The position numbers and the translations under genes were made by a program. The notes beneath the pieces were generated by a model. It did not search any database and was not told the origin of the DNA. It saw nothing but the letters and a program-made list of their open reading frames with translations. A DNA stretch of 64,000 bases from Takakia lepidozioides (lineage: Eukaryota > Plantae > Bryophyta), in contig CM060734.1 of NCBI GenBank assembly GCA_030704615.1, forward strand, positions 18,042,001-18,106,000, written 5' to 3'. This document shows positions 1 through 45,559 of this stretch, piece by piece. The stretch's first letter is position 1. Each line of letters begins with the position of its first letter.

Positions 1-3000
1 AGGCTGAAATAGGTCGAAGAAGAAGGTGCCCTCACACATTCTCTAAGGCCTCCATACCACGCCCCTGTTGTGCACACCCTGCAAGCATCGTGTTCCACGT
101 GATGAAAGATTGTCGAGGCATTCTGTTGAACACTTGGTGAGCATCCATGATGCCCTGCACATAACATACATGTTGACAAGGGGTTGAGTAGAAAAATATT
201 TGGCATTGCACTTTGGATAATGTGAGTGTGCACCTGCTTTCTAGCTTCAAGGCCTTTCATCTTGATGCACTTATGCAAGAGACAGACATACGTATTTGAA
301 TATGCTAAAACGCCTCCTTGGTTTAAAGTCAGTAGATCCTCTTTCAACTCACAAAGCATATCCACATGCCCATAAGTGCCAGAAGAGGCATTGTGGACTC
401 CCTCTTGTGATCCTCTTCCAGAAGCTGTGGTCATGGTTGAGGTGCCTGACTTTATAACTGTGCCGTTGCAGTGCTGCTGCTTTGGCGATGCAACCATGCA
501 CATTCTTTGCAATCTGGTAATCTGACAGGCAATTCACCTTGGTACAACTCCAGCTCTGAAGATGTCGCCATGTGGACCTCTTTTCCCCTTTTCCAAAGCT
601 GCCAGGGGCAGTGTTCAGATTGACATTTAGTACAATTCCAGCTTTGATAATATCCCAGCACCTCTTTGCCCTTCTCCAGGGCCGCTGCTGTGCCAGGCTT
701 GCACAAGCATGGCGATATGCAAATGCACACAAACATGATGTGCCCCCCATCATTTGCTCATAGGTCTCCAAAGCCTCCATTCCACATCCCTGCTTTGCAT
801 ACCCTGCCGCACATCATATCGCACTCCACGACACCACATGTCGTTCAGCCATAGTGTCAACACTCCCTTTTGATCCTAGAGCACCCACATTTCGCAAACA
901 TGTCCACCAGGGTATTGTTCAGAATGTCATCTGGTACAAATTCCAGCTCTAAGATGTCGCCATGCACCCTTCCCCATTCCAAAGCTGCCAGGGTAGGTTC
1001 AGATTGACATTTGGCACAATTCCAGCTTTGATGATATCCCCATGCACCTCTTGCCCTTCTCCAGGGCTGCCAGGCTTGCACGCACATTGCAAATGCACAC
1101 AAACATGATGTGCTTCCCCTATCATTTGCTCATAGCTCTCCAAAGCCTCCATCCCACATCCCTGCTGTGCATACCCTGCAAGCATCGCACTCCACGACAC
1201 CACATCTCGTTCAGCCATAGTTTTTGAACGCTCCCTTGGCATCCTGATGCACCCACATTTTGCAAACATGTTCACCAGGGTATTGGTCAGAATGACACAT
1301 GGTACAATTCCAGCTCTGAAGATGTCGCCATGCACCTCTTTCCCCTTTTCCAAAGCTGCCAGGGTAGTGTTCAGATTGACATTTGGCACAATTCCAGCTT
1401 TGATGATACCCCATGCACCTCTTTGCCCTCGTCTAGGGCTCAATGCACCCACATTTTGCATACATGTCCACCAGGATATGGTTCAGAATGACATTTGGTA
1501 CAATTCCAGCTTTGATGATACCCCATGCACCTCTTTGCCCTTGTCCAGGCTCGATGCACCCACATTTTGCATACATGTCCACCAGGGTATGGTTCAGAAT
1601 GATATTTGGTACAATTCCAACTCTGAAGATATCGCCATGGACCTCTTTCCCCTTTTCCAGAGCTGCCAGGGCAGTGTTCATAATGACATTTGGTACAATT
1701 CCAGCTTTGATGATACCCCATGCACCTCTTTGCCCTTGTCCAAGCTCGATGCACCCACATTTTGCATACATGTCCACCAGGGTATGGTTCAGAATGACAT
1801 TTGGTACAATTCCAACTCTGAAGATGTCGCCATGGACCTCTTTCCCCTTTTCCAGAGCTGCCAGGGCAGTGTTCAGAATGACATTTGGTACAATTCCAGC
1901 TTTGATGTCCCCATGCACCTCTTTGCCCTTGTCTAGGGCTGCCAGGCTTGCACAAGCATTGCAAATGCACACAAAGTGGCCGGGCTTCACCCCCTCCCCC
2001 ATCATTTGATCATAGGTCTCCAAAGCCTCCATCCCACGTCCCTGTTGTGCATACCCTGCAAGCATCGCACTCCACAACACCACATCTTGTTCAGCCATAG
2101 AGTCGAAAACTCCCTTGCATCCTCAATGCATCCACATTTGGCATACATGTCCAGGTCAAGGCAGTGTTCAGAATGACATCTGGTGCAATTCCAGCTTTGA
2201 CCGATGTCACCATGGACCTCGTTCCCCTTTTCCAGGCTTGCACACGCATTGCAAACACATACAAACGCGATGTGGTTGGGCTTCACCCCTTCGCGCATCA
2301 TTTGCTCACAGGTCTCCAAAGCATTCGTACCACGCCCATGCTTGGTAATCCTGCCAACATTATATTCCACGTGATCAAAGATCGTTGAGGCATTCTGTGT
2401 TGAACACTTGGTGATCATCCATGATGCTCCCCTTAACATACATGTTGACAAGGTTGTTGAGTAGAAAAATGTTCGTCGTGAATCCACTTTGGGCAATGTG
2501 AGTGTGCACCTGCTTTCCAACTTCTAGGCCTTTCATCTTGATGCACTTAGGCAAGACACACATACGTATCTACATCTGTTGAAATGCCTCTTTGGTTTAA
2601 AGTCTGTAGAGCCTCTTTCAGTCTACCTGCCTCATAAAGCATCTTCACATGCCCATAAGTGCCAGAAGAGGCATTGTGGACTCCCTCTCTTGATCCTCTT
2701 CCAGAAGCTGTGGTCATGGTTGAGGTGCCTGATTTTATCAACTGTGCTGCTACAGCTGCCGCTTCCAGCTAACCATCTACCCATGGAGGTTTCTTGTAGC
2801 TATCCTTCCACAGGGATCCATAGGTAATCTGGAGCTTGAAATCCGACCCTCTTGGATGAATATGGACCCACACTCTATCCTACTCCTTCAGCTATCACTG
2901 CCTCTGCACAAATCATGCATACATCCTTGCCTTGCTGCCAATGTGATCATCGCACTCCACGACACCACATCTCGTTGAGCCACAGTCGAACACTACCTTT

Positions 3001-3115
3001 GCATCTTCAATGCTCCCGCATTCGGCATACATGTCCACCAGGGCGGTGTTCAGAACGACAAACCCTACAATTCCAGCTTTCACGATGTCACCATGGACCT
3101 TCCATGTCACTTCCA
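1..3115 (-). pseudogene. Cluster of frameshifted PLS-class pentatricopeptide repeat (PPR) gene copies/fragments
   Basis: Recurrent P/L/S motif signatures on the minus strand (LVDMYAKCGCIEDA, RDVVSWSAMLAGYAQQGRGMEALE, FVCICNACASLAALEKGKEVHGDI) broken by many frameshifts. The N-terminal block at ~95-470 is a diverged duplicate of ~2365-2750. No E/DYW domain is visible in the window. Confidence 0.93.
1443..1935. repeat. Near-identical internal tandem duplications within the PPR array (~195-bp period)
   Basis: TGCACCCACATTTTGCATACATGTCCACCAGG recurs at ~1444, ~1555 and ~1750. Flanking GTTCAGAATGACATTTGGTACAATTCCA blocks are also repeated. Confidence 0.85.
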
Positions 3116-3892
3116 GGTAGAGGCAGTACATATTAAAATATGCAAGCCCCCAAGGCCAGATTTTATTTGTCTATTCTTGTGAAACACACGTCAGCAAATG
3201 TGGCCCTGAATCACGGGTGCAATCAATGCACAGTGGTTCATGGAGTCGTTGAGTCGACTACATATTCACTTTAATGAATAAATATCTTTATTCCATTAAT
3301 CAAATTATGAATGAAAATTTCTAGTCGCATGTGCAATAATTAGAACCACTTGTAATTTCCGTTTTTTCAAATTTTATGTATTTACGCAATTAATTAAATA
3401 GCCCGGATTTTTGCTACGACTCCGGAGTCGTTGACCCCACTTCTGCCCGCCGTCTGAAATGCCCCCGTGGGCCCACATGGTCCGTTTCGACTCTCCAGTA
3501 GTCCCGCTTACTGCCAAGTGGTTCCTGGAGTGGTTGGCGGACACCCAGTCGATTCGGAAAAGACACGAATGCTTCTAGTGCTAGCAACATTCACAGCTGT
3601 AGTGACTTGGCCTGGAGAGTTGCTAGAGGGCAACGCTCATTCAGAGGATACACCTCCAGGAGAGCAGGATGACATGTATGGTACAGCGGAGTTGCCTGCC
3701 ATGGTTGCTTAGACTCCATTGTGGGGCACGAGCAAGGATTTGCAGCGGGTTGCTGATCGACGGGTGCAACAAGCCTGGGTAGAGGCTTTTGTACCATCAG
3801 GAGAGGAGGAGAGTGCGGGGATTGCACCAGGACCACCTCAGTTGTCTCCATTGGACACCACACCTATTGTGTGGCAGTATCCGGATGAAGGC

Positions 3893-4838
3893 ATTTGCTT
3901 TCTGGACTTGTTTGGCGGGATCAGCACTGGATTGGCTGCTGTGCTACAGGCAGGTGTACAGGTACGGAGATACCTGTATGTGAAGAGGGATGAGACATTA
4001 TGATGCGTCTCACTACGCCATGTTGCCCAATTAGTACAGCAGTACCCTGAGTTGTTGCCAGTGTTTGCAGTTCGTGGATACCAGCAGGCATTACCAGCAG
4101 ACATTTTCTTGCTGGGGGCGCAAGATTTGGAGCAGGTTGGCTCCATCCACTTGGTAGTGGCAGGTTGGCCTTGCCAAGGACATTCATCAGTCGGGCATGG
4201 CAATAGATTGCGAGACTCGAGGTCGGGTCTGTTTTGGGAGATGGTGCGGGTTTTGCGCTACTTACAGCTTCATCAAGCTGTATCTCCGGCATACATTTTG
4301 GAGAATGTGCCACTGATGGGCGATTCTCGAGGCAGGGTGATGGCCAGTGTGCATCAAGTCCGGTCATGGCTTGGGTTAGCAGTGTTGTTGGATGCAGCTG
4401 CAGTGGGGTCATGGGCTCATCGTCCACGGCTATGGTGGACTAACTTGATGTCACCCACACTGCTCAAGCGTGCATTTGATGGGATGCAGCGGCCAACACA
4501 CCTCACAGTGGATAACATTTTGGACACAGGGAGACAGTCTCAGAGTGTGAGACACGATGACCGTTCGCCTTTGGCAGTGGTCAATAAGGTGGGTCAACCA
4601 CAAGCAACACTACCTACACTGCTCAGCTTCCCAGGATCACATGCTTTCCGGGATAGTGGACCTGGCCTCTTGTGGGATGCTCGGTTGCAGCACTTAGTGG
4701 AGCCTAATGCTAACGAGCGTGAGCGGGCGATGGGTTTTTCCACTAGGACCACGACGGTGCCTTCTCTTTCTGAGGCATCACGTCATCAGGTGTTGGGGCA
4801 AGCAATGGATCTCAATTGCTTGACCTGGATTATCAGCT
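3893..4838 (+). pseudogene. DNA (cytosine-5)-methyltransferase domain within Pol (DNMT3-like linear motif order)
   Basis: Motif I LDLFGGISTG, III PADI, IV VAGWPCQGHS (catalytic PC), VI YILENV, VIII AHRPRLWWTN, IX ERERAMGF, X RHQVLGQAM. One in-frame TGA at 4001. Confidence 0.93.
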
Positions 4839-5263
4839 TGGCTATGGCTGAGCAGCGCAAAGTGCGGAATATACTTCCCTCGATGGTCTCTCTGCCTACC
4901 AAGATGGTACAGGCACTGAGTGGGGGCAAGCATGTGAGGATCACGGGGTGCAGGCATCCATGGCACACGTGGGAGGTGCTTGAGGTTCAGAGGGAGTTGG
5001 CAGCCAAGGCGGCGGTGATGGATGAGGTTGGGGATTTTTCTCGGGTTGAAGAAGTCCTCGAGGATGAGATGATGGGGTGGGATGAGGCCTCATTGACTGA
5101 GCAGGCAAGGAGTATTGCTCAAGAGGTTGCAACATAGCAACCACTGGACGCGTCCTCCATCTCTAAGCCCACTGGACTTAAGGTTGCAGTTACAGAGGAC
5201 AATTGGGAGCCTGACATTGGACCCATTGTCACCGGAGGAGAGAGACGACGTATACGGCAGTTC

Positions 5264-6640
5264 TTGAGGGCTTATAGGAATTGCTTTGCCTTCAGTTTGA
5301 AGGACTTGGGAGCATTGAAGGGTCAAGAGATCTGTATTGAGTTGGCCACTGACACGTCAATCTTTCGGAGACCCTATAGATACAGTGACATGGAGAGGTC
5401 TTTGATTCAGATGAGGAGTCAAGATCTCTGGGAGGCTAGTTTGGTGGAGCTCTCTGGTGGAGGGTATGCTTCAGCCACAGTGATGCCAGCCAAGAAGGAT
5501 GTCTATGGCAATTGGACGGAGAGACGTATGTGCGGTGATTACCGGCCTGTAAATCGTCAGATCAAGTCCAATAAGTATGCCATGCCCACACCGGAGGAGA
5601 TCTTTGATGCCATTGGGCATGTTAAGGTCTTGAGCACTTTGGATTTACGATCCGGATATCACCAGTTGCCGATCAAGGAGGCGGACAAGCAGAAAACGAC
5701 ATTCTGGGGGATCAATGAGCACGGCAAGGATTACCTATATCAATGGCGGTTCTTACCATTTGGGCTTAAGAATGCTCCTGCAGAGTTTCACAGAGTCATG
5801 GATAGGATTCTAGCAGGGGTGGACTTTGCTCGGTGCTACATAGATGACATCATCATCTTTAGCGCTACGGTGGAGGAGCATGAGAGATACCTTCAGGTAG
5901 TATTGGAGCGCTTGAGAGCGCATGAATTGAAGTTGCGTCTGGGGAAGTGCAAGTTTTTCCACAACCAAATTGAGTATCTGGGTCACATGATATATCCTGG
6001 AGGATTGGGGGTACAGCAGACTAAGGTAGAGGCCATTGCACAAATTCCACGCCCCACGGATGTGAGCCGAGTTTGAGCTTTCATGGGATTAGCAAACTAC
6101 TATAGATGGTTTGTCAAGGGATTTAGTGCTATTGCAAAGGCTCTAACCAAGCTGACCAAGGTGGACTAGAAGTGGCAGTGGGAAGATGAGCAGGAACGAG
6201 CTTTTCAAGAGCTCAAGGCGAGGTTGACCTCGGCGCCTATCCTGAGACGACCTATCAAGGGGCGTCCCTTTCAGCTGCATAGGGATTGGAGCACGTTGGG
6301 GCTTGGAGCGGTGCTCACACAAGTGGATGATGAGGGAAGAGAGTTCGTAGTGGCTTATGCTAGCCGCTCAAACAACGCTGCAGAGACTAAGTACAGCTCA
6401 TATGAGGGAGAGTGCTTAGCTGCAGTGTGGGCCGTGGCACACTTCAGGTGCTATCTATATGACAATCTCTTCACCCTTATCACGGATCATTAGCCACTCA
6501 AGTGGTTGATGGAGTCAGATAAGTTTACAGGGAAGCTTGCACGGTGGGCACTCACACTCCAAGAGTATGATTTTCAGGTTGTGGGATCGACCGGGTTTGG
6601 TCAATCGGGATGCGGATGGATTGAGTCGCAATCCATGCAT
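5264..6640 (+). pseudogene. Gypsy reverse transcriptase and RNase H
   Basis: RMCGDYRPVN, LDLRSGYHQ, PFGLKNAP, YIDDII. RNase H DWSTLGLGAVL...YASR...YEGECLA...TDH...NRDADGLSR. Stops at 6074, 6167 and 6491. Confidence 0.95.
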
Positions 6641-6999
6641 GAGCCAACAGGATGACACTGAAGCTCGGTGGCATGGTGAGACGGACGAGAAGATGGTGTC
6701 GGGATGGCACGCATCTGCATTTTTGTGTATTTTGGTAGTGGGAGGTCAGATTGAACCTACAACAGGGATGACTATAGATGGAGTGTCTGAGGACCCTGAG
6801 GCTAGTGACGAGCCAGGTGGTGCCAGAGATATACAAGAGGATTCGGCTGTGTTGGACTACCTCCGTACTGGAGACACGACAGCCATTGTGACTGCCAAGG
6901 AGAGGGATCGGATCCTGCAACGAGCCAAGAGGTTCAAGTGGGAGGGGATACACCTGCTCCGAGTGTGGGAGGATGGTCGGGTGAGGATTGTGCCTCACC

Positions 7000-7932
7000 C
7001 AACATAGCGTGCATGGTTAGTGCGGCATGCCCATGAGAAGTTGGGGCATTTTGGAGTGCGACGCACTCACAGTTTACTGCAGGGACAGTATTGGTGGCGT
7101 GGTATGCATACAGAGGTGCAACAGTTTGTGGCTAGGTGCATGGTGTGTGACAGGGTGCGTGCTTCATTCAACGCCCCTACACCACAGTTGCATCCTTTAC
7201 CAATCATAGGATTGGGCTGGCTTGCACAAGGGACACCTAGGAGATTGGGATCTTCAGGTGCCTTGGTTAGCCATGGGCTACAGGTTCAGCAAACGAGCAT
7301 CACTTGCCTCCTTTTCACCATATTTCCTTCTCTTTGGCCGAGAGCCGGATTTGCCTGCAGCCATTCGTAGGAACACTGCTCAAGTCCTTAACCTCGACAA
7401 TCCGGACGTGTAGGTACGTGCATGTGATCAGCGTACAGAGTTGTTCAAGAAAGTCATGCCCATGGCTTTTGAGAACCTTGCCATTACACAGCACCGTGAT
7501 ACGTTGAGGTATGCCATTATACGTGGTGGAGGATATCGTCCTGGGGTTTGGAGGTTTAGCCCTGGTGACTATGTTTATTTGCAGCAGACTGCTCCTACGA
7601 CCCTGGATGTCACTACAGGGCGTGTTATTCTGAGGGTTCGAGAGGTGTTGCCCTCAGGAGTCCTGATCTTGGAGGGTCGGGATGGCATGACTTGGAAGGA
7701 CCATGTGCGTAATTGTGCACCATGTCACCTTCCCAATGTCGATGGCAAAGTTAACCCAAACTTGGCAGTGGTACCTGCAGGTTTGAGGTGCATGCTCTAT
7801 GGGTCTGCCAAAGGGGCAGCCACCGTGCTGGTGTATGATCGATGCTCAAGAGGTTGGCACATGGCATGCTTGACACCACCTCTTGAGAGGGTTCCTGATG
7901 GAGATTGGTTATGCCCACACTGCTTGGGATAG
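7000..7932 (+). pseudogene. Integrase remnant (HHCC, catalytic core deleted near 7218) with C-terminal PHD finger
   Basis: HEKLGHFG...YWWRGM...CMVC, then a jump to WDLQVPWLAMGYR...SPYFLLFGREP. PHD at 7789-7923: CMLY...YDRCSRGWHMACLTPPLERVPDGDWLCPHC (two expected Cys are Tyr). Confidence 0.88.
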
Positions 7933-8192
7933 TGGTAGTGGATATGACCAGTAGCAGCTAACAAGACATGGGCGGCCAAGCTCATATGAGTCAATACACG
8001 AGATCCCAGACTCAAGTTCACAGGTTGCAAGACGGCGACTAACAATGGGGCTACTCTTGTACTCGACCTCTTGATCTATCAAGTTTGAGTGTAGTAGGGA
8101 CAGTGGTGGAGGACTTAGTGAAGCTATGGTCACTATCACATCTTGTGGCTACCTGGACTTAGAGGGACTAAGCACCAGCTAGGGGGGGCGAT

Positions 8193-8820
8193 TGTGGTAG
8201 ACTAGTGACTGCCATAGTGGGCAGCATAGTGGCAGCCTAGTGGTTGGACTAGTGGTATACTAGTGTGTGTTATGCACATGTGTTGTGTGGTTTGGGACAA
8301 CGATATAGTTGTGTAGCGATATGTATGCGCACGACAGCTGTTAAGTTATTTCACCACTAGTGTGAAACTAGCTAGGAAATAACTAGCTTTTACATATTGA
8401 CATTTGGGATTGGCCCAAGTGTCAATCCAGGGATCAAGGCAGATTTAGGCCCTGGAGTGGTTATCTTCACGACAAGCGTGGGAGGCTCATCTTTCTCGAG
8501 TTGAGCCTCACCGCGCCTAGCTATGGCGCCGTAGTGTGGATTCCCCATGGCGTGGGATGCACTTGGCTTGACTTGTATTTGAGTGATGAGTTTATATATG
8601 CATGAGTTTATGCTTCAGCTTTGTGAGCTTGCATGAGCTCGTGTGTATTCTTCTTCTTTACCATTGTGGTGGACTAGTGACTGCCATAGAGGGCAGCATA
8701 GTGGCAGCCTAGTGGTTGGACTAGTGGCTAGACTAGTGATATACTAGTGTGTGTTGTGCACATGTATTGTGTGGTTTGGGACAGCGATGTAGTTGTGTAG
8801 CGATATGTATGCACATGACA
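8193..8820 (+). repeat. 3' LTR of the DNMT element, with terminal direct repeats 8193-8336 and 8665-8820
   Basis: Starts TGTGGT just after the PPT and ends GACA. The two ~145-155 bp blocks are highly similar. Confidence 0.8.
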
Positions 8821-9719
8821 ACCTGCCCACACGAATAATAATCCTGATTGGGTGGAAGCATATGGTAGGAGTGCTAAGTTGGACTTCAGACCCCCCGTCT
8901 CTAAGTTTGTGCGTTGGGCATATCAGCCAACAAACACTAGCCAGCGTGCACCCCTTCAGACATTAGCCCAGCAAAACAAGCCACAAAGGGAAGTGACTTT
9001 CCATGCTGTATGTGCTGCCTACATTGCTTTCACTTCAGATATCAGTTTTGGATATTGTATTATGTGTATGCTCCTAACAATGTGATCTCTTACATCCCTC
9101 CACATTTATATAATTCAAGGGCTTTTGCCTCATGTATGCATTTCAACACTGACGTATACTTCTATGTCTATTCCTCCTCACTCTTGTTATCTACTCATAA
9201 TAGTGATACTACTCTGTTTCTAGGGATACCCATTTCGAGCTGGGACATACCCTCATCACGCTTGGTATTTACCCCGCATTGTAACAACTTAAATGGTAAA
9301 TTCTTCTCATTAGACCCACCTACTCAGCTACGAACACTCCTCCGTTCCTCTAGCTACTGGAACAATATGACCCAGAGGCTTCAACACAACTTGCTGCCAC
9401 CATCTTGGCCTCGCTGATGAAGCAACGTGTCAAGCCATCCGACACATCTTCTTCTCACCAAGCCTGTTATGTTACATTTTTCTGTCTTTGGTTCAGTTGT
9501 CGAAGCATATCGAAGAATGCATGTGCTATATCATACTACTCTCAAAGAAATTCATATCTAGAATTAGATATGCATTCTTATACTTGTGGAGGACACTCAC
9601 GATTACCTCTTCAAGTTCTTCTATTTTGCAGGAATCACACTATCACATCGGCTTTCCAAGACTTACATCAAGCTGCATTATATCAATATCCTTACGGAAT
9701 TTACTGACACATACCTCTT

Positions 9720-11099: not shown

Positions 11100-12448
11100 T
11101 ATCCATATAATCCAACCACACCCCTCTTACCCCCACCTTTCCAAAATACCTTACCAAACACATTTTGAACCCCTTGAACTCGTCGTTCACCCACACGGAA
11201 CCCGCCATCAAAACCCTCTAAAATGCAGGCATTACTGCCACCATCCCCCCTCAACCGACACAACATACACAGACACCTGTATCGACCTCATACTCCTTAG
11301 ATGTGGAGACATCCACCCAAACCCAGGGCCCTCTTCTATAGATGATATCATTTGTCAATTACCCATAGACCCATGTAAGACATATATGCTCTATATTTCC
11401 AAAAAAACACCTTCTCCCTCACACACCAATACCAACATCTATCTGACCACTTGTTGAGCGGCTTTTACTCACCCATCCCTTCACTATCCGAGGTGGGAAC
11501 TCCAAGATAGAAGAGTTGGATATCTCTAAGCACTCAGCCCGCTCAGAACAATCAGTCATGACCTACAACTAGCTGTGTATCATGGAAGTGCTTCTTGTTT
11601 GTATTCTTTCTTGCCTTCATGTCAGCGAATTACCTTATTGTTTATATTTAAGCATCAGATTGCTTCAGCAATCTACCAGGTTCCAATCACTCACCCCTTC
11701 ATTCCACAGCTTCACTCAGGTCTCTCTACACAATGTGAGTATGGAATATGTATCAGATTAAGATCTATCAAATATCAGGCCGAAGCCATGGTGTCGCTAG
11801 TCTGCTCTACAGTATAACTCTACAGCTTGCATGAATCAAGCATCAACAGTTCGTGTTTCCTCCTTCACTGCGCTCCCCATTCCTCAGCTCCAGATCGTCC
11901 TCCTCTCCTCGATGACCAAGTCGTCAAGCAAGAAGTGTCATCTCCCTATTGCTACCCTGCCTTTTCTACCTGCAAGCTGTTCTAACTGCCTAACTAACTA
12001 ACTCTCATCCAGATAGAATACACGTTCCCGCTGCCGATGTCGTTCCCACACAGTCGTTCCCTGCCATGGTAACCGTTCCCTGCGAATGCTGTGACGGGTT
12101 GTGCCCAACTGTGTCGGCTGTGACTGGCTATGTTGGGCAATGTCGAGTTGTGTCGGGCTGTGACTGGCTGTGTAAAGCTATGTCGGGTTGTGGCTAATTG
12201 TGTCGGGCTGTGTCAGGCTGTGATAGACTGTGATAAGCTGTGATAAACTGTGATAGGCTGTGTAAGGCTGTGTCAAACTGTGTCAAGCTGTGTAAGACTA
12301 TGACTAACTGTGTAAGGCTTGTGTTGGTCTAAGTCTTCCATCCGTAAGTCTGCGCAAAAATTAAGGGTACCCCACAAAACCCATAAAACTGTCTAAGTCC
12401 CAGACAGCCCTCTAACATTACCCCTCCCCCTTTCAAAAAGTCGTGTCC

Positions 12449-15400
12449 TCACGGTTTACTCTTTAGGATCAACAAACCTTTGTGAGCGAGCACCCTTCTG
12501 TCGGTGAGAGTCCCTTGGAGGGCTCTGTGTGCGAGCCCGAGCCCTGTCACTGGCTGGTGGAGATGACTGGTCACCAAATGGAAATGTCTGTCCTTCCTTT
12601 GGTTGATAAGGAGGTAACTTCTCTGGCATAGGAGATCCCCGTCGTTTCGTCTCTGCCATTTGTAGTGCACATCCTCCGCCATGTCAAAAGTTTCCTCTAC
12701 AGAACCAGTTGTATCATAATCATCCTCCCCCCTGTGGACTTTCGGTGCTCTAACCTTCTCGGGAATCCTGCGTGGCACACAGTGTTTGTCCACCATGTCT
12801 GGAAGTTTAAACTTTAAAACCTGCATCAATCTCTTGAGTGCAAAATTAGTGTACTCCCGGAGCTCCTTGTCCGTATAGATGAGGGGTGTGCCAACGACCT
12901 TGGAATAGTGTAAGTATTTTCTGGCTTCATGTCCCTTATAAAAAAGATCGTCAAGGCCAAATTTTTCTTTGGCCAAAATGTCCAAAGCAAAATTGAACCA
13001 AAAACGAAGTTGGGGATCCTTCTGCAACATGATCTTCACATCATACAGATACGTATGGGGTGGAACTGAAGGTAAGACCCAATGATCCCCAGTGGAATAA
13101 CTCTGAAATCTCGACTGCATCTTCTGCTGCTCAATGTGATAGCGTGCAATGAAACAAGCCGCATAGTATAATCCACAACCCATGACCAAACTAGGTACCT
13201 CCTTGATCTTGGTGTAGATGTACCCATGAACAATCTGGAAGGCAATTAATTCCTTCAGCATGGTGCCTGCCTCAGACCAGTACCTCGCAAAATGGTGATC
13301 CTCAATGGGTCGGTTATTCGGAAGAACCTTAGTCCGAGTTGCCACCGGCAACCAAATGCGCATGCTCTAGTAATATTGTGGCAAAGACTCTAGGATTGAA
13401 TTCCTTCCAAGCCAAATCCATCACAATGGGAATTTGGTTGAAGGGCATAATCATAGCCCGATTGTACTCAAGTGCAGCAGGAGTCCTAGGTGGGTTAAAA
13501 GAAGCATCCCCCCAAACCTCAGATTGCTGCAGGGCCATGGTATCAACAGTGTCGACCTGTTGTGGTTGTTGTGATATGGCCGCCACTGTCCCTCCTATTG
13601 TTGGCAAGTCCTGCACCTCCTGCGATGAAGATTGAAAAATCAGAGTCCTCGCATGCAAATAAGCAGCCACCAGCTGTTCCTTAGGAACAAAGGCTCTTTT
13701 GTCAATGTTGGAGCTCAAGTCATCCACTTGAGTCTGCAGCCCTTCCACATCATCCGGCAACTCAACTATTCCACTATAGACATTGTCTATAGTGGTTGTG
13801 GCAATGTTTTGCACCTGCAGCCTGAGATCATTCATCTCTTCCTGGGTGAGCTTTCTTGGTGCCTTCCCTTCCACCGGCCCTTGTGTTAACCACTCTTGCA
13901 AAAGATGATTATCCACCAAGTCCTGTGTAGCACCCCGAAGAGCCTGCTCCTCCTTGCGTCTGTACATATCCAACTGCTGCTGTAAAGCCTCCATGTGCTT
14001 CGCATGAGGTTCAACCAGGGTTGCATAGGCAGCAGTCAAATTATTGGCTTCTTTCCAAGCCTTGGTAGTTACCGAAAGCTCATTCTTTCGTGATGTGAGT
14101 GTTTGCTGCAACTCAAGGATGTACCTGTCCTTCTGAGCCTCAACTTGACTGTATTGTTGGAAAGTATCCTCATTACGACGGCTAGTAGCCTTCAAGTCAG
14201 CAATGAATTTCGTCTGCTCCACTGATTCAGCCTCCACCATCAAACATCTATCAGCCTGATTCTTAACTTCTAATGCAGTCAGCTCCAGAGTAGTTGTTAA
14301 TGTGGCACATTGGATGGTCATTTTCTGATGAACTGACTCCAACTCTGTATGTAGCAACTTCACTTCCTGCAATTTTCCCTCATGCTTCACTTGCAACTGG
14401 TATAACTGCTGCTTGTGCACTTCATGCAACTTCTCCTACTCCAGACCTGCTTCAATCAGGTTTTCCTTTGCAAGCTATAGGGCAGCCCTCGTGTCTTCCA
14501 ACTCTTTCTGCAACTTGAGGTTGGCCTCCACATCCACTTTATTTGCACACTCAGTGACAATTCTTGCCTCAAACTCTTGCTTGAGCTCCTCCCTCAATGC
14601 TGCCAATTGCGTGGAAGGAACATGGGATTTCACATAGGTGCCCAACAGGTTGAGAGTCCTGCTTATGGAACTCATAAGCATGGCCTACTGTGGGTCTTCA
14701 TGGAGAACTTGTTGTTGTTCTTCCTGATCCTCCATAGTTTGATGTTTCACAAACCAATCGGGCCATGATCCCACAAGATCCTGTTCCTGAGCCACCTCAT
14801 CCTCCACAGGTGCTGCAGTGCCCTTGCACTCTACCCCTTGAACCTCTGTCACAGGTTTGGGCATGACTTGCACAAGAGGGATTTCCTTGGTCAGACTCTG
14901 CATCTTTGGTGCTACTGGTTCTCCGACCATGCCAGTGTTTTCATAGAAAAGGTCACCCTTCTCAATTTTTGCCACTACCTGCTCTGTAGTGGGGATGTCC
15001 AACCCTTCTCTTTCCACAACAATAGGCTCTGGTGTAACAGCATGTACTATCTGAGTTACCTCTGGAGCAACCGAGTCAACTGGCTGTGGTGGCTGTGGCA
15101 CTGAAGTAACTTCTTCCTCCCTCTCCAAAGGCCGTGCTTCCAACAATGACAGCCCCCTGTGTTGCTGTTCCCCATCCTACATAAGAGCTATGGAAACATC
15201 ATCTTGTGGTTTCCTTGTAGCTAGTGGATCTGCCACTACCGTCACATCCCGCTTCTGTCTCTTGGACTGTGCTGCCCCTCCAATCCCCCTTCACCTTGTG
15301 AAGAGCCCTGCTCCTCAATTGCAGTTGTGGCTGTCTCAAATACTCCCATCTCCTTGCGTTCTCGCGCATCAAGCAAACAAGAGTCAAGGATAATTTGCGC

Positions 15401-16511
15401 AATTATTGGGCCAGGCACAATGATCGGGGACTTAGCAGTAGTATTTTGTAACCGCTTCATCTCCTCCACCAGACCATTGTACATCAACTCCGCCCAAGCC
15501 ACATCCTCTCCCCTCAAGGCTTTCAGTACCTCCTCCATGAAAGATCTGCTAAGATACTGTTGGTTCTGTTTCATGGCAAACATAACGTTTAGTATTTGGC
15601 CAACTTCCCTTAACCCTGGGTACTCGGCCTTTGTGCAGGTGTATCCCTGGGTCTTAAAGAAACTTGTTTCTTGGAACAAATCCCCTATCTGCAATCTTGC
15701 CTTGTGTTCATCCACATTCACATGGGCTGATGGCAATTCAAACAGTTGCTGCAAGTACTGGGGAGTAATCTCTATATCTACTCCCCTCACCTGTGTAACT
15801 CTTGTCCGAGGCTCAAAGTTCTGAATGAATTGAATCATGAACCCCCGATGATGCAAGGACCATTCTTTGCGTAGCAGCCCTTCCAATCACAACTCCTTCA
15901 GCAGCTGCACTGCCTGTGGTGTAGCAATTGTTTGCTTCTGTAGAATCGTGGTGCTCTTCACCCTGATATCCTCCATTTCCCTAATTCTCTTCATCCCAGA
16001 CAAACAAGAAGGCCTTGTTTGGAATAGTTGTAGAAAAGCTTACAGGGCGTAAAGCATGAAAGTATGGTTGGCACAGAAAGGAACGGGTAAGTGAGTGTAA
16101 GCCTGTGGGGCTTGCAGATAATGAGTGAGAGAGAATGTCCTTTCAATCCGTCCGTCCTTGCGCCACTGCGTAAGTAGTAAAGCTAGCGTATAGTCTGTGA
16201 TATCCCATAGCTACAAAGCTATAGCTTTGATTGCCCCTCCCGTCGAGACGCTGGTTATTCGGAGCAACCCCGACTCTTCCGCTCATAACTTTTCTAATTT
16301 CTTGTTCTTGTTTCTTGGAGAGAACCACCTGCATGAAATTCACGTTCCTGATTGGCTGTTGCCTCCTTGGGTAACTTCTCAATTTTATCCCCATCTGTTC
16401 ACATTCCCACTTGGAATGCCCACTAGGACAGCACATGTGGCACAGGTCCCCCTTTGCTGTACGCGTAAAGGGTTCCGTTACCTGCTCCCTGGATGCATTA
16501 ATGGCCCGCAA
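12449..16511 (-). pseudogene. 3' accessory (env-like position) ORF: CCHC knuckle, plant-transposon-protein-like domain, acidic linker, coiled coil
   Basis: Co-oriented with pol. CHMCCPSGHSKWEC; FMIQFIQNF...QVRGVDIEITPQYLQQLFELP; long heptad-rich region at 13329-14681. The homologous frame is conserved in copy 2. Confidence 0.7.
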
Positions 16512-19500
16512 TTACATCAGCACGTACTTCTTCCACATGATATAGTTCATGTTTCCTTACTTTAATTGAATCCTCCAATTTCATTCTCCTCCCCCATTCA
16601 GTTCTCATGGTAGGTAATAAGAATTCCACTGGAAGTAAAAGCTTCCATACCATAAACTAATTGGAATGGTGTATACTTGGTGGTGACTTTATATGAAGTC
16701 ATGTATGACCACAAAGCTGTCAACAGCTTTGTATCCCAATCCATTCTGTTTGCATTGACTATCTTAGCCAAAATAGTGCATAGTATTTTGTTGGTGGCCT
16801 CTGCTTGCCTATTGCCCTGTGGGTAATAGGTTGTACTCTTCCTGTGCACAATCATGAACTCTTTAATAGTTCTATGGTCTCATTAATGAAGTGACTTCCC
16901 TGGTCACTGATAAATTCCAGGGGACAGCCAAATCTTGTGTGTATGTTCTCATACAGGAACCTTGCTGTGGACTTAGCTGTGTTGTCCTTCAGAGCCTTAG
17001 CTTCCACCCACTTTGTAGTATAATCAGTGGCTGTGATTATATACTTGCTCTGTGTATTCCTGGCTGGTGGATTAATTGGTCCAACAAAGTCTAGTCCCCA
17101 TTTCTGAAATGGTTCAGTAGGCATCGTAGGATGCAAAGCCATCTTCCCAGATCTCTGCAAAGGTCCTAGCCTTTGACACTCATCACAACTCTTGCAATAC
17201 TTGTGTACATCCTTGAACAAAGTAGGCCACCAGTAACCTGCAAGTAGTATCTCTCTACTGGTAGTCTCCTCTCCAAAATGTCCTCCAGCCACTCCTTTAT
17301 GAACTTCATGGTGGTACAAGCACCGTTTAAGAACTCCATCACGTCCTAGCTTATACAATATGCCACCTATCATAGTGTAGGGTAAAGCCTTGATAGCTAT
17401 TCTCTTCCTCTGTTCCTTCCCATAACTGGGTGGGCACTGATCATGAGTAAGGTAGTATCTGATTGGCCACTGTCAATCTAACCAATCATCTGCACTTCCC
17501 TGCACCTCCACTGCAAATAAACTCGCATCAGGCAGCTGGTCGTCTACTCCCGTGGCGGCCTCTCCTGTTGATAGCCGTGACAAGTGATCTGCCACAAGAT
17601 GCAAACGGCCAGGCTTGTAAACAACTTCAAATTCAAACTCGTGCAAGATTATCATCCATCTTGTTATCCTGCCACTTATCAAAGGCTTATTCACCAGATA
17701 AATCAAAGCTTGATTGATCCACATAAAACATAAACTTCCTTCCCAATAGGTAATGCCTCAATTTCTTAACTGCATAAATCATTGCCAAAGCTTCTCTTTC
17801 AGTAGTGCTATAGTTCCTCTCCGCACTGTTCAATAATCTGCTAGCATAGTACACAGGTGAATCTATATTTCCTGTGACATTCTGGGCTAACACAACCCCC
17901 AATGCTTCTCCTGAGGCATCACAGTGTACATGAAATACTACATGCCAGTGAGGGTTAATCAGCACAGATGTAGTTGTTACTGACAATGTAAGTGCTTCAA
18001 ATGCCTGTTGACATTCAGCTGTCTATGCAAACACTGCATCCTTCTTCAAAAGCTTGCTCAATGGGATTGTCATATGTGCATATCGTCTGACAAACCTTCT
18101 ATAATAAGTAGTTTGTCCAATGAACCTCTTTAGATCCTTAACGTTACTTGGTGGTGTTGAGGCTTTAATAGCCTCTGTCTTTTTAGGATCCACAAGCAGT
18201 CCATTCTTACACACAATGTGTCCCAGTAGTACCCCTGAGTTCACGCAGAAAGTACACTTTTCTGGATTCAGACCAAGACCTCTCATCCTGCATCTGGCCA
18301 AACATAACTCCAGCACTGAAGTCATCGAAGAACACTTGCATGAAATCATCCAGATACTCATAGAAGGATTCACTTATCACCCTCTGAAAAGTTGCTGGTG
18401 CATTACAAAGTCCAAAAGACATGACTTTGTATGCATAAGCACCCCAATCTGTGATAAAAGCTGTCTTTCCTTGGTCTTCTTCCGCCACTTGCACTTGGTT
18501 ATACCCACTGAAGTCATCCATGAATGAATACATCTCATGGCCTGCCACAGTGTCCAATACAGCTTCTGTAAATGGCAAGGGAAAATGATCTTTCTTTGTA
18601 CAAGCATTCAACTTTTTATAGTTCACACAAACCCTCAGTTTGCCATTCTTCTTGGGAACTATCACAATGGGTGACAACCAAGTTGGATACTCTATCGGGT
18701 ATATGAACTTAGCCTCAGCCAACTTTTTGATCTCTTCCCCAACCTTTTGTGCATAGTTGGGATTCATCCTGTACCTTGCCTGTTTGATTGGTACTGACCC
18801 TGGTTCCAGTTCGATCTTATGCTGACAGATCTCAGGTGGTATCCCTTTCAGATCCTCATAGCTCCAAGCAAATACATCTCTGTATTTGATGAATAGGCTC
18901 TTAGCTTCCTCAAAGAATTCTGGCTCCAAGTCAGCCCCCACTTTCACCATTCTTGGTTCCTCCTCAGTTCCTACATTCACTTCTCTTACCTGCTCTCAGC
19001 TGTGATTGTCCATCCAGCCACTACTTCATCCTGTAAACTCACAGTGGCTGGTTCTTCTAGGATTTCCATTTCTCCCCCTCTTTCCTCATAGAAATGTGGT
19101 GGGTAACTACTTGTTTCCCCCTCAATTGGTATTGCTGTTACTGCACCACAGCAGATACCTTTAAAGCAACTCAGGCCTCCCAGTTGCATTTCTGCAACCT
19201 GCTCCCACTCTGGGTGTGCAGCAAACAGTATAGCTTCCTGCTCCTCCCCTCCAGTCATACTCTCTGACTCCACGAGGTCTTCTGGTAGCAGGTAGCCTAC
19301 TAGATTTCTTAGTGGTGACCTGTATTTTGTGCTTCCCATCATGCACAGTCAGTAACTGGGAATTCCAGTCATGGAATACCCTGGCCTGCTTCAACAATGG
19401 CCAACCTAGCAATAAGGAGTAAGCTTCCATGACATCATCCATTTTCAACACAGTCACTGTGATCTTAAATATCATCTTCTGAATCTGTATCTTAACTCCT

Positions 19501-19680
19501 CTTATCAAGCCTAATGGCTGTACACTCCTTTGATCTGCCATTGTTACTGTGAATGGGGCTGGTTTCATGTTACTTAGACCAAGCTTCTGCCTTAATTGGT
19601 CTGTCATAATATTCACTCATGAGCCCCCATCTATCAGTACATCAGACAAGTCTGTGCTTCCAATTCTCAATTGGATTACT
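16512..19680 (-). pseudogene. Gypsy pol (PR-RT-RH-IN), disrupted
   Basis: ORF fragments 19161-19616, 18207-18980, 18023-18373, 17687-17986, 17473-17724, 16852-17373 and 16598-16855 carry canonical motifs. Confidence 0.95.
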
Positions 19681-20461
19681 GTTCATATGGTCGCGCTACT
19701 GCTTCAAGTGGTTCTAGTATGCTACGGTCAACTCACTACTCGGCAGTTTGCATCTGGTTTTATGGTCGGCCACACCGTGATCACTGCCTATCCTTTGTTA
19801 CCCTCTATGAGGCCAGATCGCCTGTAATGATCATTCCTAGTGCTCGTGTGGCTATGCTATAAAGTTGCTCTTCAATGCGGTGGCCCCTCGTATGGAGCCC
19901 GCATGCTTCATAAGGCAGAACTCACGATTTGCTCACCGATCTCATTACTTTGTGCTACGAACGCAGATGCAAGCTCCTCTTCAGAGTGTCACTATCCTCC
20001 TTTGTATCACGAAAAGACACCCGTCATGCTAAGCAAGACTCACTGTTACTTCAGCATGGATGCAAGTCCGCGTATGTATTACTGCGTCACTGAACTACAA
20101 TGCTAATCTCCTGCTAAGTCCTTGCTATCAGTGTCCATCATGACCGATCTACACATCCTCGGCGCTTCTCTCAGACTTGCCTTGTACCCTCAAAAGCTGG
20201 TAGATTAGCCCTTCACATGGGGCTGCTCCACTATGATCACCGCTCAACTGATTATTCTAATACTAAACACATTACCTGTATCAGGTGTACCTCCCTTCTA
20301 TGTGTTTAATACATGGCAAAGTGGCGTATAATAAAGGCTTGATAATGTCCAGCTTAAGCCTAAAACATAATTACCAAAATCTGCTTAGTCATGTACCATC
20401 GGTGCTGTAAATTGAAGGCCTCCACATCAGTGCGCCGCGTGTTGAACACATGACACCTTCA
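19681..20461 (-). repeat. Possible LTR remnant of another retroelement
   Basis: Non-coding. On the minus strand it begins TGAAGG directly after the purine run GGGAGGAG. It abuts the truncated XDH. Confidence 0.3.
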
Positions 20462-37377: not shown

Positions 37378-38040
37378 AATGTCTGCACGTAGACCATGGC
37401 TGCAAGAGTCAATGCCAACAAAGGAATCACAATATCACCAGCTTTGGAATAAAAATCCATGGCTGGGTTTGCATATATATAACCACTGAAGTATGGGTTG
37501 AAGGGATGAAACAGGTCCTCCACCAGTCCCCAATACTCCTTTGCTTCCTTCTGCAGGACATGAGTCCCAGACATTTGCAAAGTCATTGACTTCCTTGGTC
37601 AATGCTGTTTGGTCATGGTTAGTCCTAGCAACATGAACAGCAAGCACCACCAGGAAACTCACAACATGGGTGATCCCACAGACCAAATTTACGTTGCTTC
37701 CTTTCTCTCGGGAGTTCCACTGCAGCTGATTTGAGCTCTGCCTGAGAGGCAGTTATCATACGTTCCTTCCACACCTTCTTGGCAAGGCGGATGATCAGAA
37801 GGAAAGCTACCAGCGTGAGGGATTTCACAAGAAACATGATGCTTTGGGTCCACTGGCCCTCCCTTAGCAGGTTGTATCCAGTGTCAACTTCTGTGTCTGA
37901 ATTCATCCGTGCAAACAACGCTTCTGCCCCTGTTACAACAGCAGGCAGTTGATTGACGAACCTTGAGATAACATGCAAATCTAGCCAAATATTTGTGAAT
38001 GTACCAGAAAACCACATTCTGCCCCAAGAAGTGATACTCA
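37378..38040 (-). pseudogene. DUF2921-family membrane protein C-terminal fragment
   Basis: VTGAEALF..., FLVKSLTLVAFLLIIRLAKKVW, EYWGLVEDLF, YIYANPAMDFYSKAGDIVIPLLALTLAAMVYVQ. Frameshifts and an internal deletion are present. Confidence 0.7.
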
Positions 38041-38180
38041 AATTGTAGTTAGAGCTCTGGTGTAACATGCACTCACCCAAGTCCCATGGCCTTTTTTTCA
38101 AGTAATCACAAACCCTAACCTTCAAAGTTGGAAGACAGAAATTTAAATGCCAAGCATACAGAGCGTGTACTCCTCTGTTT

Positions 38181-38820
38181 CTATATTTGGCATACATGTC
38201 CACAAGGGCATTGTCCAGAATGATAGTTGATACAATTCCAGCTTTCAGGATGTCAGCATGGACCTCTTTGCCCTTTTCCAGGGCTGCAAGGCTGGCACAG
38301 GCATGGCAAATGCAGACGAACGTGATCTGGTTGAGCTTGACCCCTTCCCGCATCATTTGCTTATAGTCTCCAATGCCTCCATCCCACCTCCATGCTGGGC
38401 AAACCCTGCGATCATCACATTCCAAGAGATTAAATTTCGCTCAGCCATACTGTTGGACACTGCCTTTGCATCCTTCATGCTCCCACACTTGGCATACATG
38501 TCCACCAGAGTAGTGTCCAGAATGATAGTTGGCACGATTCCAGCTTTCAATGGCAGCATGGACCTCTCTGCCCTTTTCCAGGGCTGCCAGGCTGGCAAAT
38601 GCCTTGAGAACACAAATGAAAGTGACCTGGTCGGGCTTCACCCCCTCTTGCACCATTTGCACATAGGTCTCCAAAGCCTCCAACCCACACCCATGCTGGG
38701 CATATCCTGCAATCATCGCAATCCAGGAGACCACATCACGTTCAGCCATCTTGTCAAACACTCTTTTTGCATCCTCAAGGCTCCCGCATTTAGCATACAT
38801 ATTGATGAGGGCACTGAATG
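38181..38820 (-). pseudogene. PLS-class PPR fragment
   Basis: SALINMYAKCGSLEDAKRVFDKMAERDVVSWIAMIAGYAQHG; ITFVCICHACASLAALEKGKEVH; frameshifts. Confidence 0.9.
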
Positions 38821-39134
38821 ATATTTGGCACAATCCCAGGCCTGGAAACAAGATAGAGATAGGTTTCCGCAAGAAGATCCACGTATCAACAGATGCTCAA
38901 AATCTCTGCTTGGGAAGGCCGGGGATGGAAGCAAAGTAAACCTGCACACCAATCTTGTATGGTAAGGATTCTCTGGAAAACTGCACACTAGACTATTGTA
39001 GATTTGATCGCATCAGTCCTGAAACAATTCTCACGCCCTCATTGTGATGTGAAGATCTGGCACTCTCTAATGTACTGTTTCTAGATATTGGCACAAGTAG
39101 GCAGACGTCCCGCACGTCCAAGAAGCTAGGTCCA

Positions 39135-44209: not shown

Positions 44210-45559
44210 GTCATGTAAGAAAAGATGCCTCTCCCTGCGGTCAAGGTGTGGGTCCAGGGGACACAGACAAAGTCTCCCTCTCCGATACTTCTCTGATAAG
44301 GCTCGCATGGCAGCCATTGAAGCTGCTGAAGAAAACACCAAAGGCTTAGATAATCCCTCCATCGTGAAACCAATGTTACACTCCCATACAACGAGTGGGT
44401 TTTGGCTCGGGCTGCCAGCCGCCTTCTGCAAGGTGTACTTGCCATTACAAGATGACCGAATTATGTTGCAGGATGAGCAAGATATGGAATGGGAGACGAT
44501 CTATCTAGCGAAAAAGGTGGGACTGAGTGGGGGATGGCGAGGCTTCTTGCTGGACCATAACTTGGTAGATGGAGACGTATGCGTGTTTGAGCTCGTTTCT
44601 AGGACTAGATTCAAGATCCACATTGTAAGGGCCTCTAAGTCAACTGCATCGTATCCAGCCAGAGAGAAAGTGGAAAAGAGCTCAAGCGGGAAAAAATCAA
44701 TGACGCCTGTATCCAGGAAACTTCATAAAACAATCAAAGAGGAGATGAACCAAGAAGATGCAGCTGTTCTTGATGTGGTGCGGTGCAAGAAAGTCAAACA
44801 AGGTGCCAAAGAGGACACAGAATTGAAGGTCGTTGAGACAGCACAGTCTGGAAAACGCAAGAGACAAGTCAAAGAGGAGGAGGTTGTGGTTTGCGAGCAG
44901 AGTGACGAGGAAGGTCAAGATAGAAGGAAAAAAGACTCACAGCAAGAAAAGCGAGGTCGCTGACGTAAATGAGGTGATTGAACTAGAATCCGACCTTGTC
45001 GATGAGGACGACGTTGGGCAGTCACCAGCAGCACTTCAAAGGTTTAAACAGACCAGGGGTTCTTGCCGGACATCACAGAGGGTCAGTACACTGTCAGGGG
45101 GAGAAAACAAACCATCAGGAAGAGTTTGTAAACCATCGGAGAAGACCGGTAAACCAGCACGGAGGATCAGTAACTCATCAGGGAGGACCAGTAAGCCAGC
45201 TGCAAAATGGCTTGGTGTGAGGCAAGCTAGAGGCCCCCCTGCTTGGAAATGTTCCAGTGGGGAACTGACTGTAGCAAAAATGTGCATCCGAAGTAGAAGT
45301 GAAGGTGAGTAGATTGACAAATGGATCAGGAATCCAAGGACCAGCTCACAACATTGTGAGTTGATCACGTGTAGTTTTGCGGGGAGAGGGAAAAACCTGT
45401 GCCAAGATGGCTACTGGCAGTCATGCCCGTGTACACTTCTCTTGAGCTCTCTCTCGTTCTCTGTCGTTTTATGCACATTTTGAGCTGGATTGGAACCCAT
45501 TTCAACATCATGACACCTTCATGGTCCTCTGCGAAAATGATTCTTACATCCCAACTACT

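Follow-up and report, generated by a model that had tools for sequence, protein, structure and literature searches.

A DNMT3-bearing Gypsy retrotransposon family of bryophytes with a conserved stop codon, in a predicted readthrough context, between methyltransferase and reverse transcriptase

Why retrotransposons would carry an enzyme that silences them has been an open question since 2018, when KnitGypsy-Dnmt3 of Klebsormidium nitens was described with a DNA cytosine methyltransferase (DNMT) in one open reading frame (ORF) with reverse transcriptase (RT) and RNase H (de Mendoza et al. 2018, PMC5890265). The text of that paper also covers SymbioDIRS-Dnmt3 of Symbiodinium, whose methyltransferase domains show de novo CG methylation when placed in yeast, and SymbioLINE-Dnmt, which has its C5-methyltransferase in ORF1. 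Here we describe a Gypsy element of a land plant, located in a window of 64,000 nucleotides of Takakia lepidozioides (GenBank assembly GCA_030704615.1, contig CM060734.1, positions 18,042,001 to 18,106,000 of the forward strand; coordinates below are those of the window), in which a DNMT3-type domain lies upstream of RT and is separated from it by a conserved in-frame stop. The original prediction for this window had pointed to DNMT-carrying retrotransposons from dinoflagellates and Klebsormidium, as the text of PMC5890265 indeed reports, and had proposed a land-plant Gypsy element, for which RT, RNase H, and integrase domains are found. PPR and B3 genes in the window place its host among land plants, and the liverwort origin of the nearest named elements points to a bryophyte.

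The window element is a close relative of KnitGypsy-Dnmt3 that lacks one defining feature, an ORF shared with RT. The two share Gypsy domains in the order protease, RT, RNase H, and integrase (the protease as seen in intact relatives of the window copy), an intronless, non-permuted Dnmt3-type domain with its key residues, a DIRS-like A-coding-B-A-B repeat arrangement (B-A-B in the window, complete in locus L033), and purifying selection on the DNMT (Ka/Ks <0.2 as criterion; 0.08-0.12 in most of our between-family pairs). They differ in the conserved stop, which leaves DNMT and RT in the same frame but in different ORFs, in the land-plant host, and in the PHD finger, which the text of PMC5890265 does not mention. 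That text treats the capture as an event of the K. nitens lineage alone, whereas the relatives found here range from chlorophytes to liverworts and mosses. The expected relation to Klebsormidium elements is supported. Of three K. nitens RT proteins, none with a DNMT in its gene model, two (P0365 and P0410) fall in the RT clade of the window element.

SymbioDIRS-Dnmt3 resembles our element in its retroelement-borne Dnmt3-type domain and A-coding-B-A-B repeats, and SymbioLINE-Dnmt in having a C5-methyltransferase in ORF1, but these are tyrosine-recombinase or LINE elements, for which the text of PMC5890265 reports no DDE integrase, PHD finger, or readthrough. The EpiLTRs of Cymbomonas and Euglena are long terminal repeat (LTR) elements that likewise combine a DNMT and a chromatin reader, but with a DNMT4-like enzyme, an adenine methyltransferase, and a chromodomain, and in the accessible text their authors separate them from 'streptophytes (Gypsy-DNMT3)' (bioRxiv 10.64898/2026.05.21.726589). 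Gypsy-7a_cRei and REM1 of Chlamydomonas are green-lineage Gypsy elements whose PHD finger has been suggested to guide where they insert, but no DNMT appears among their domains as listed in the accessible part of PMC9940879.

Three things are new here: hosts that are land plants, one of them a genetic model; a clade that extends across the green lineage and has the DNMT at either of two positions; and a conserved stop of leaky type, which links the DNMT with Gag. The published hosts, dinoflagellates and Klebsormidium, are hard to manipulate, whereas Marchantia polymorpha has genetics and methylomes. The accessible text of later papers gives Gypsy-DNMT3 for 'streptophytes' with no land-plant examples (PMC12344493, bioRxiv 2026.05.21.726589), and 'Marchantia' is absent from the text and species table of PMC5890265, the figures and main supplement of which lie outside this scope and may hold bryophyte sequences in their trees. 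The open literature, exclusive of subscription papers and preprint supplements, yielded no land-plant description of the family and no report of CAR-YYA readthrough, a PHD-bearing Gypsy element, or split repeats for it. Further papers, likewise in part, served as context only (PMC11982613, PMC8566409, PMC6453930, PMC6317226, PMC6673714, PMC8557442, PMC2774666, PMC9477723).

The methyltransferase occupies 3875..4864 on the + strand, with one decay stop at 4001. As predicted, its motifs lie in one frame in canonical order: FLDLFGG (I), DIFLL (III), GWPCQ (IV), ILENV (VI), AHRPRLWWTN (VIII), ERERAMGF (IX), and LGQAMD (X). Identity as a plant DRM is rejected on this ground, the order running from I to X without permutation. 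Pfam assigns PF00145 (E 1.1e-9), the profile by which the original prediction was to be checked, and the proposed DNMT3 affinity is supported by sequence and by model. Specifically, the best PDB sequence match is DNMT3A (E 1.2e-9), together with DNMT3B and DNMT3C, with 4onj ('DNA methyltransferase', presumably the plant DRM entry; 0.009) and M.HhaI (0.017) far behind; an AlphaFold2 model built from a 26-sequence alignment (pLDDT 92.6) is closest to DNMT3A/3B (E 7e-20, TM 0.73/0.84). A search of the ESM Atlas returned only PF00145 clusters. The domain is 71% identical to a Calypogeia protein and 65-68% identical to the best Marchantia proteins. The window copy lacks an acidic residue of motif II that is present in relatives. 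In 40 long ORF1 or polyprotein sequences, which are not independent of one another, EN[VT] is kept in 40, HRxRxxW in 39, and G[WF][PE]CQ in 37, and the enzyme of intact elements is probably catalytically active, judging by these motifs and the model. A viral origin is not supported, viral contigs having given only distant bacterial or phage-type C5-methyltransferases (24-52% over short segments), which served as tree outgroups.

The original prediction placed this domain within Pol, separated from RT and RNase H only by point stops. The common frame holds; the point-stop reading fails at 5135-5137. In intact relatives, Gag (with a CCHC knuckle), protease, and DNMT make up 1230-1775 residues and end 53-162 residues past the DNMT, where the window has a TAG. 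Among 50 related loci and the window, 34 loci include the RT start, and in 31 of these an in-frame stop (23 TAG, 8 TAA) followed by CAR-YY lies 19-26 codons upstream of it. Strict CAR-YYA occurs in five loci (the window, L009, L025, L028, and L031). By comparison, the 642 other in-frame stops of the same loci, which are decay stops, are followed by CAR-YY in 12 cases and by CAR-YYA in none. After clustering at 80% DNA identity, the signal is present in five of seven families with an RT start, four of them with strict CAR-YYA. The signal-bearing families are 54-73% alike in DNMT DNA, and the contexts are CAA-CCA in the window and in L009, CAG-TTA in L025 and L028, CAA-TCA in L031, and CAA-CCC in the L001 family. 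In particular, L025 has 1369 open codons, TAG-CAG-TTA, and 1047 open codons in a single frame, and L031 has TAG-CAA-TCA upstream of 1047 open codons. For Marchantia and Calypogeia, the evidence for the stop is the end position of the ORF1 proteins.

Sequencing runs agree. In four runs aligned to 5100-5175, variation reaches 4% at just two positions, 5132 and 5145, and all letters of 5133-5144 vary at less than 4%, while the decay stops at 6167, 6491, 7005, and 7411 (the four of the seven that were listed) differ from the window in ~99% of the depth of run X1. The stop at 5135 is conserved and is not a decay stop. That the whole coding region was one polyprotein, in which the DNMT was a Pol domain like any other and every stop a product of decay, is accordingly a very improbable arrangement here: it is the arrangement of KnitGypsy-Dnmt3 according to its authors (PMC5890265, text) and of P0154, P0172, P0380, and P0061, but a stop fixed among family copies and conserved across families contradicts it.

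The nine bases at 5135..5143, TAG followed by CAA CCA, form a putative programmed readthrough site. UAG-CAR-YYA is the readthrough signal of tobacco mosaic virus (TMV) and, in the accessible text of PMC2754532, gave 32% readthrough in transient plant reporters and 6-10% in stable Arabidopsis reporters. A site of this type (type I), UAG then CAR-YYA with the two ORFs in frame, is found in the window, L009, L025, L028, and L031. In-frame stops also occur in murine leukemia virus (MuLV) gag-pol, soybean SIRE1, rice RIRE2, and Candida Tca2 (PMC2754532, PMC2194720, both in part). As with these and the TMV stop, an in-frame stop here would set the ratio of a short to a long product; unlike the MuLV, SIRE1, RIRE2, and Tca2 stops, it lies past protease and an enzyme domain rather than directly past Gag, and no conserved downstream stem was found (z +0.7 to -3.4 for RNA structure 3′ of the stop at 7 loci, against mononucleotide shuffles). 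Given the conserved stop in its readthrough context, the DNMT closes the Gag-protease ORF, so that ORF1 encodes Gag-protease-DNMT3, and ORF2, which encodes RT, RNase H, integrase, and PHD, is very likely made by readthrough of the stop.

Several observations weigh against this reading. Three loci (L034, with TAG-TAG-CCA, L050, and L016) lack the signal; the largest family has CAA-CCC, imperfect at the sixth base; and 8 of the 31 stops are TAA. The locus sample is uneven, with 39 of 48 clustered loci in one family and some loci being one locus assembled twice. An in-frame AUG lies 3-5 codons past the stop in L001, L028, and L034, which represent three families, and could serve an ORF2 made by reinitiation or from an internal promoter. 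Splicing around the stop would fit public gene models of Marchantia and Sphagnum (P0008, P0009, P0014, P0018, and P0041), which bridge DNMT and RT with shortened, differing linkers, apparently through predicted introns. For Candida Tca2, the accessible text of PMC2194720 reports that readthrough was not seen in yeast with the junction by itself, and that a weak promoter lies within it. Under any of these routes the DNMT would still end ORF1. We nevertheless regard them as unlikely compared with readthrough: the six bases past the stop match a known plant readthrough signal across the divergent families listed above, intact loci keep ORF1 and ORF2 in one frame, no Met codon occurs among the first 79 codons past the stop in the window or L025, and the linker differs in each of four Marchantia models (42, 74, 68, and 24 residues), as prediction artefacts would give. 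A contig of run X10 over 4766-6936, whose RNA origin is a guess, was not counted as expression.

The split arrangement is not universal in the clade. In the DNMT tree, elements whose ORF1 ends past the DNMT group together (0.96) and are separate from most single-ORF forms, and a second split form, P0207, sits elsewhere, beside the fused P0061; the stop therefore looks derived and labile. Many relatives are single-ORF forms without a stop (for example P0154 and P0172) or have the DNMT between RNase H and integrase, which indicates that the clade can do without a Gag-level dose and is a further point on the opposing side.

Our overall reading, to which we assign a probability of roughly 55%, is that a Gag-protease-DNMT3 ORF and a leaky stop would bring Gag-level amounts of methyltransferase into the particle, where the element's own cDNA would be methylated before integration. 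Most ribosomes would end at the UAG and yield Gag-protease-DNMT3, and a minority would read on into RT, RNase H, and integrase-PHD. The expected dose of enzyme would then be set per capsid protein, not per RT, and the particle would hold methyltransferase at ~3-20-fold excess over RT, beside new cDNA as its likeliest substrate. Packaging of the DNMT in excess over RT and integrase is a probable consequence of this gene order. That cDNA is the main substrate, and that new copies arrive pre-methylated and so pass as host DNA or stay quiet, we consider an even bet.

The same layout and leaky stop could serve a DNMT that acts mainly elsewhere than on packaged cDNA: in trans on chromatin, at the insertion site, on RNA, or by binding DNA without catalysis. 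We judge this the less probable course, although it is the principal competitor. In its favor, a Gag-level dose is far above the need of one cDNA per particle, GWECQ replaces GWPCQ in many chlorophyte-type relatives, and CpG observed/expected is 0.49 in the element, while three further Gypsy stretches of the window give 0.12, 0.23, and 0.35 and five relatives 0.28-0.69, a pattern that gives no sign of an added burden of CG self-methylation or of added CpG depletion. Also in its favor, KnitGypsy-Dnmt3, the closest tested domain, showed no activity in yeast, which its authors call inconclusive (PMC5890265, text); this and the CpG values count against methylation of cDNA. Pointing the other way, 37-40 of the 40 long sequences retain the catalytic Cys, ENV, and RxR, with a ratio of nonsynonymous to synonymous substitution (dN/dS) of ~0.1, and fusion to Gag is the usual way of loading a retroelement particle.

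The DNMT-bearing family is a high-copy one: in run X1, which possibly has the same source as the window, 57,883 contigs align to 2800-9300, with summed depth, which is not copy number, of 4-9e5 over the DNMT, 8-9e5 over RT, and ~300 past 8875. A first protein search gave 64 matches, including 18 Marchantia polymorpha models, Calypogeia fissa (71%), two Sphagnum and two Closterium proteins, and one 'Chrzof1' model. A protein library clustered at 50% gave 626 relatives at a cutoff of E<=1e-10, of which 181 pass 1e-30. Of 297 fetched DNMT-bearing proteins, a redundant set with fragments and near-duplicates, 70 are protease-DNMT without RT, 40 are RT-RNase H-DNMT-integrase-PHD, 89 are DNMT alone, and the rest are partial or single-ORF forms. 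In Marchantia polymorpha, long uninterrupted Gag-protease-DNMT3 models (for example Mp4g09160, Mp5g06330, Mp5g06860, and MpVg00370) are annotated as hypothetical or CCHC proteins. Beyond the host pair that is usually counted, bryophyte genomes may contain many further DNMT3-type genes.

A tree of 170 RT-RNase H sequences puts the window element beside Calypogeia and Marchantia elements (0.98) within a clade of PHD-integrase elements (0.94) that also contains the two K. nitens proteins, Closterium, 'Tetstr1' models with DNMT, and chlorophyte-type elements (FastTree supports; deep nodes are weak). The DNMT and RT have descended together, and their trees largely agree: for 35 elements, 11 of the 17 well-supported splits in the DNMT tree recur in the RT-RNase H tree, and 11 of 16 the other way (Mantel rho 0.57, 0 of 2000 permutations), with four DNMT/RT pairs of this set joined by equal-sized source sequence and one Marchantia pair taken from two copies. 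The DNMT is thus a fixed trait of the family and no chance neighbor, as had been argued. It is under purifying selection between families, with dN/dS ~0.1, in line with the selection expected of it. Specifically, among 12 pairs with the window, seven give 0.08-0.12, two give 0.19 and 0.24 near saturation, and three are saturated; the unsaturated pair L025-L028 gives 0.124 for DNMT and 0.139 for RT. Within the decayed L001 family, values are higher, 0.39-0.69 for DNMT and 0.32-0.58 for RT, which counts against the overall reading.

A recent, neutral capture of a host DNMT3 gene is the least probable origin we considered. True DNMT3 genes do exist in non-flowering plants, and PpDNMT3b has a non-permuted DNMT3 catalytic domain like that of the element (PMC6453930, accessible text); the DNMT tree was moreover made without host DNMT3 sequences, and it cannot place the donor, since homology searches (best ~8000 candidates each) returned no host DNMT3 and no K. 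nitens DNMT. Host DNMT3s, however, carry a C-terminal DUF3444 (PMC6453930, accessible text), whereas the element domain sits in a Gag fusion and Pfam finds no DUF3444 in the window element or its intact relatives; the nearest homologs are other elements, down to green algae; and the low dN/dS and congruent trees noted above are unlike those of a neutral newcomer. Of the three outcomes named beforehand as damaging to the original prediction, namely family copies without the DNMT, a recent neutral host capture, and a consensus without PC or ENV, none was observed.

The family is old by the spread of its relatives across Marchantia, Calypogeia, Sphagnum, Closterium, and chlorophytes, and the DNMT3 capture appears older than one algal lineage. 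The same searches (best ~8000 candidates each) returned no named vascular-plant member, which is weak evidence. A tentative wider scenario, which we hold to be more doubtful than the reading above, is that an ancient green-lineage Gypsy clade with DNMT3 and PHD predates land plants, that its bryophyte branch made DNMT3 Gag-stoichiometric through a virus-type leaky stop, and that its particles deliver methylated cDNA, with expressed high-copy families adding de novo methylation to the host.

A large sister clade (P0043, P0048, P0057, P0328, and others, including Monoraphidium neglectum and a 'Chrzof1' model) places the DNMT after RNase H and before integrase, often with GWECQ for GWPCQ, which indicates that the domain has moved within the element; variants include a G-patch in P0057 and P0278 and a chromodomain together with a PHD finger in P0316. 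Compared with P0006/P0018 and P0071/P0449, the L001 family (L001, L008), which is close to Sphagnum fallax P0041 at the RT start, nests beside the Marchantia element within liverwort elements in both trees (0.95, 0.96), a placement that would reflect old polymorphism or transfer between bryophytes. P0499, a 1043-residue RT-integrase-PHD protein labelled 'uncultured Synechococcales cyanobacterium', is probably plant DNA in a bacterial bin.

The PHD finger predicted at the end of the integrase is present, but it is no peculiarity of the window element, since PHD fingers occur across the whole clade and on Chlamydomonas Gypsy elements (PMC9940879, accessible part). A chromodomain, the mark of a chromovirus, is not what ends the integrase. 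The intact PHD of L025 is nearest those of CHD4, PHF12, PHF21A, KAT6A, ATXR5, DPF3, and KDM5. PHD fingers of this group mostly read H3 tails unmethylated at K4, and the ADD domain of animal DNMT3 offers a parallel. By this analogy, the PHD may tether the integrase to H3 tails without K4 methylation, for which we would put the odds slightly below even; such a tether would favor inactive chromatin.

The 3′ end of the window element has the order purine tract, B1, GC, A2, B2. Specifically, a polypurine-tract-like AG7 run (8181..8188, +), found before the junction in L011, L025, L031, and L033 as well, lies directly 5′ of repeat B1 (8191..8336, +), which ends in ACA and is 87% identical, with gaps, to 8663-8820. 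A palindromic, att-like B/A junction, ACA-GC-TGT (8334..8341, no strand), recurs in L002, L031, and L033 and as ACA-GT-TGT in L025. Repeat A2 (8339..8662, +) begins with TGT and is named by analogy, A1 being lost from the window copy; the segment past the junction recurs at the element 5′ end in L033 and L002. Repeat B2 (8663..8820, +) ends in ACA and forms the element 3′ end, as indicated by the repeat match and by run X1 depth, which drops by three orders of magnitude past ~8875. The complete A1-coding-B1-A2-B2 form is seen in L033 (1676-10805) with a 4-bp target duplication, and A1/A2 are also present in L002. The B-GC-A unit of L033 begins near TG past the polypurine tract and ends in CA, as an LTR would, so that the integrated form resembles a two-LTR circle that has been permuted. 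Since the position of B-GC-A after the purine tract is that of a normal LTR, a possible route, though one we advance with reserve, is integration of a two-repeat circle opened at its internal palindromic ACA-GC-TGT, which would give A-coding-B-A-B. Identity as a DIRS or Ngaro element is rejected, since intact relatives have rve and H2C2 rather than a tyrosine recombinase and L033 has the 4-bp target duplication.

The window copy itself is a dead, 5′-truncated Gypsy copy at ~3540-8820 (+) without Gag, protease, and 5′ repeat. The extent first proposed, 3467..7932, captured a real element but neither of its ends: homology begins at ~3535-3560 and the element runs to 8820. Frame 2 of the + strand holds linker, methyltransferase, RT, and RNase H from ~3540 to 6583, with a frameshift near 6585, and integrase zinc finger, integrase C-terminus, and PHD finger follow. 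The first part (3540..3874, +) is a remnant of ORF1 between protease and DNMT, at which the copy is truncated (a tblastn match of the intact ORF1 P0071 begins at 3560 with residue 806, and a blastp match to P0002 begins at about residue 26-45). Past the DNMT, an acidic C-terminal tail of ORF1 of 89 codons (4865..5134, +) leads to the conserved stop. RT (5138..6166, +; RVT_1, 2.4e-30) continues in the ORF1 frame with a decay stop at 6074, and RNase H (6170..6583, +; RT_RNaseH_2, 1.9e-33) has decay stops at 6167 and 6491. Tether and integrase (6586..7788, +) include the H2C2 zinc finger (7017-7163; Integrase_H2C2, 1.1e-15) and the C-terminal part. A deletion of ~113 codons at 7218/7219, with loose ends at 7218 in run X1, has removed the catalytic core (residues 688-800 of the intact P0449). 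The PHD finger (7789..7932, +; PHD, 2.2e-7) closes ORF2 before a stop and lacks two zinc-binding cysteines of its relatives. The seven decay stops of the copy are at 3710, 4001, 6074, 6167, 6491, 7005, and 7411.

Upstream of the element, a repeated segment (3120-3540) lies between a PPR array and the truncated copy; it contains a short direct repeat (3242/3424) and has no second match elsewhere in the window. Frameshifted PPR repeat arrays (Pfam PPR), which we take to be of the PLS class, occupy 1-3100 (-) and 37600-38900 (-) and are very abundant in the sequencing runs. Another Gypsy family is present at 12100-19700 (-), 47600-51300 (+), and 51300-55000 (-), with 10-bp tandem arrays and CpG observed/expected of 0.12-0.23; it has additional long ORFs with no convincing Pfam match at 12449-13366, 13329-14435 (coiled-coil-like), and 15245-15886. 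A B3-domain gene at 44211-45300 (+) is intact over 250 codons.

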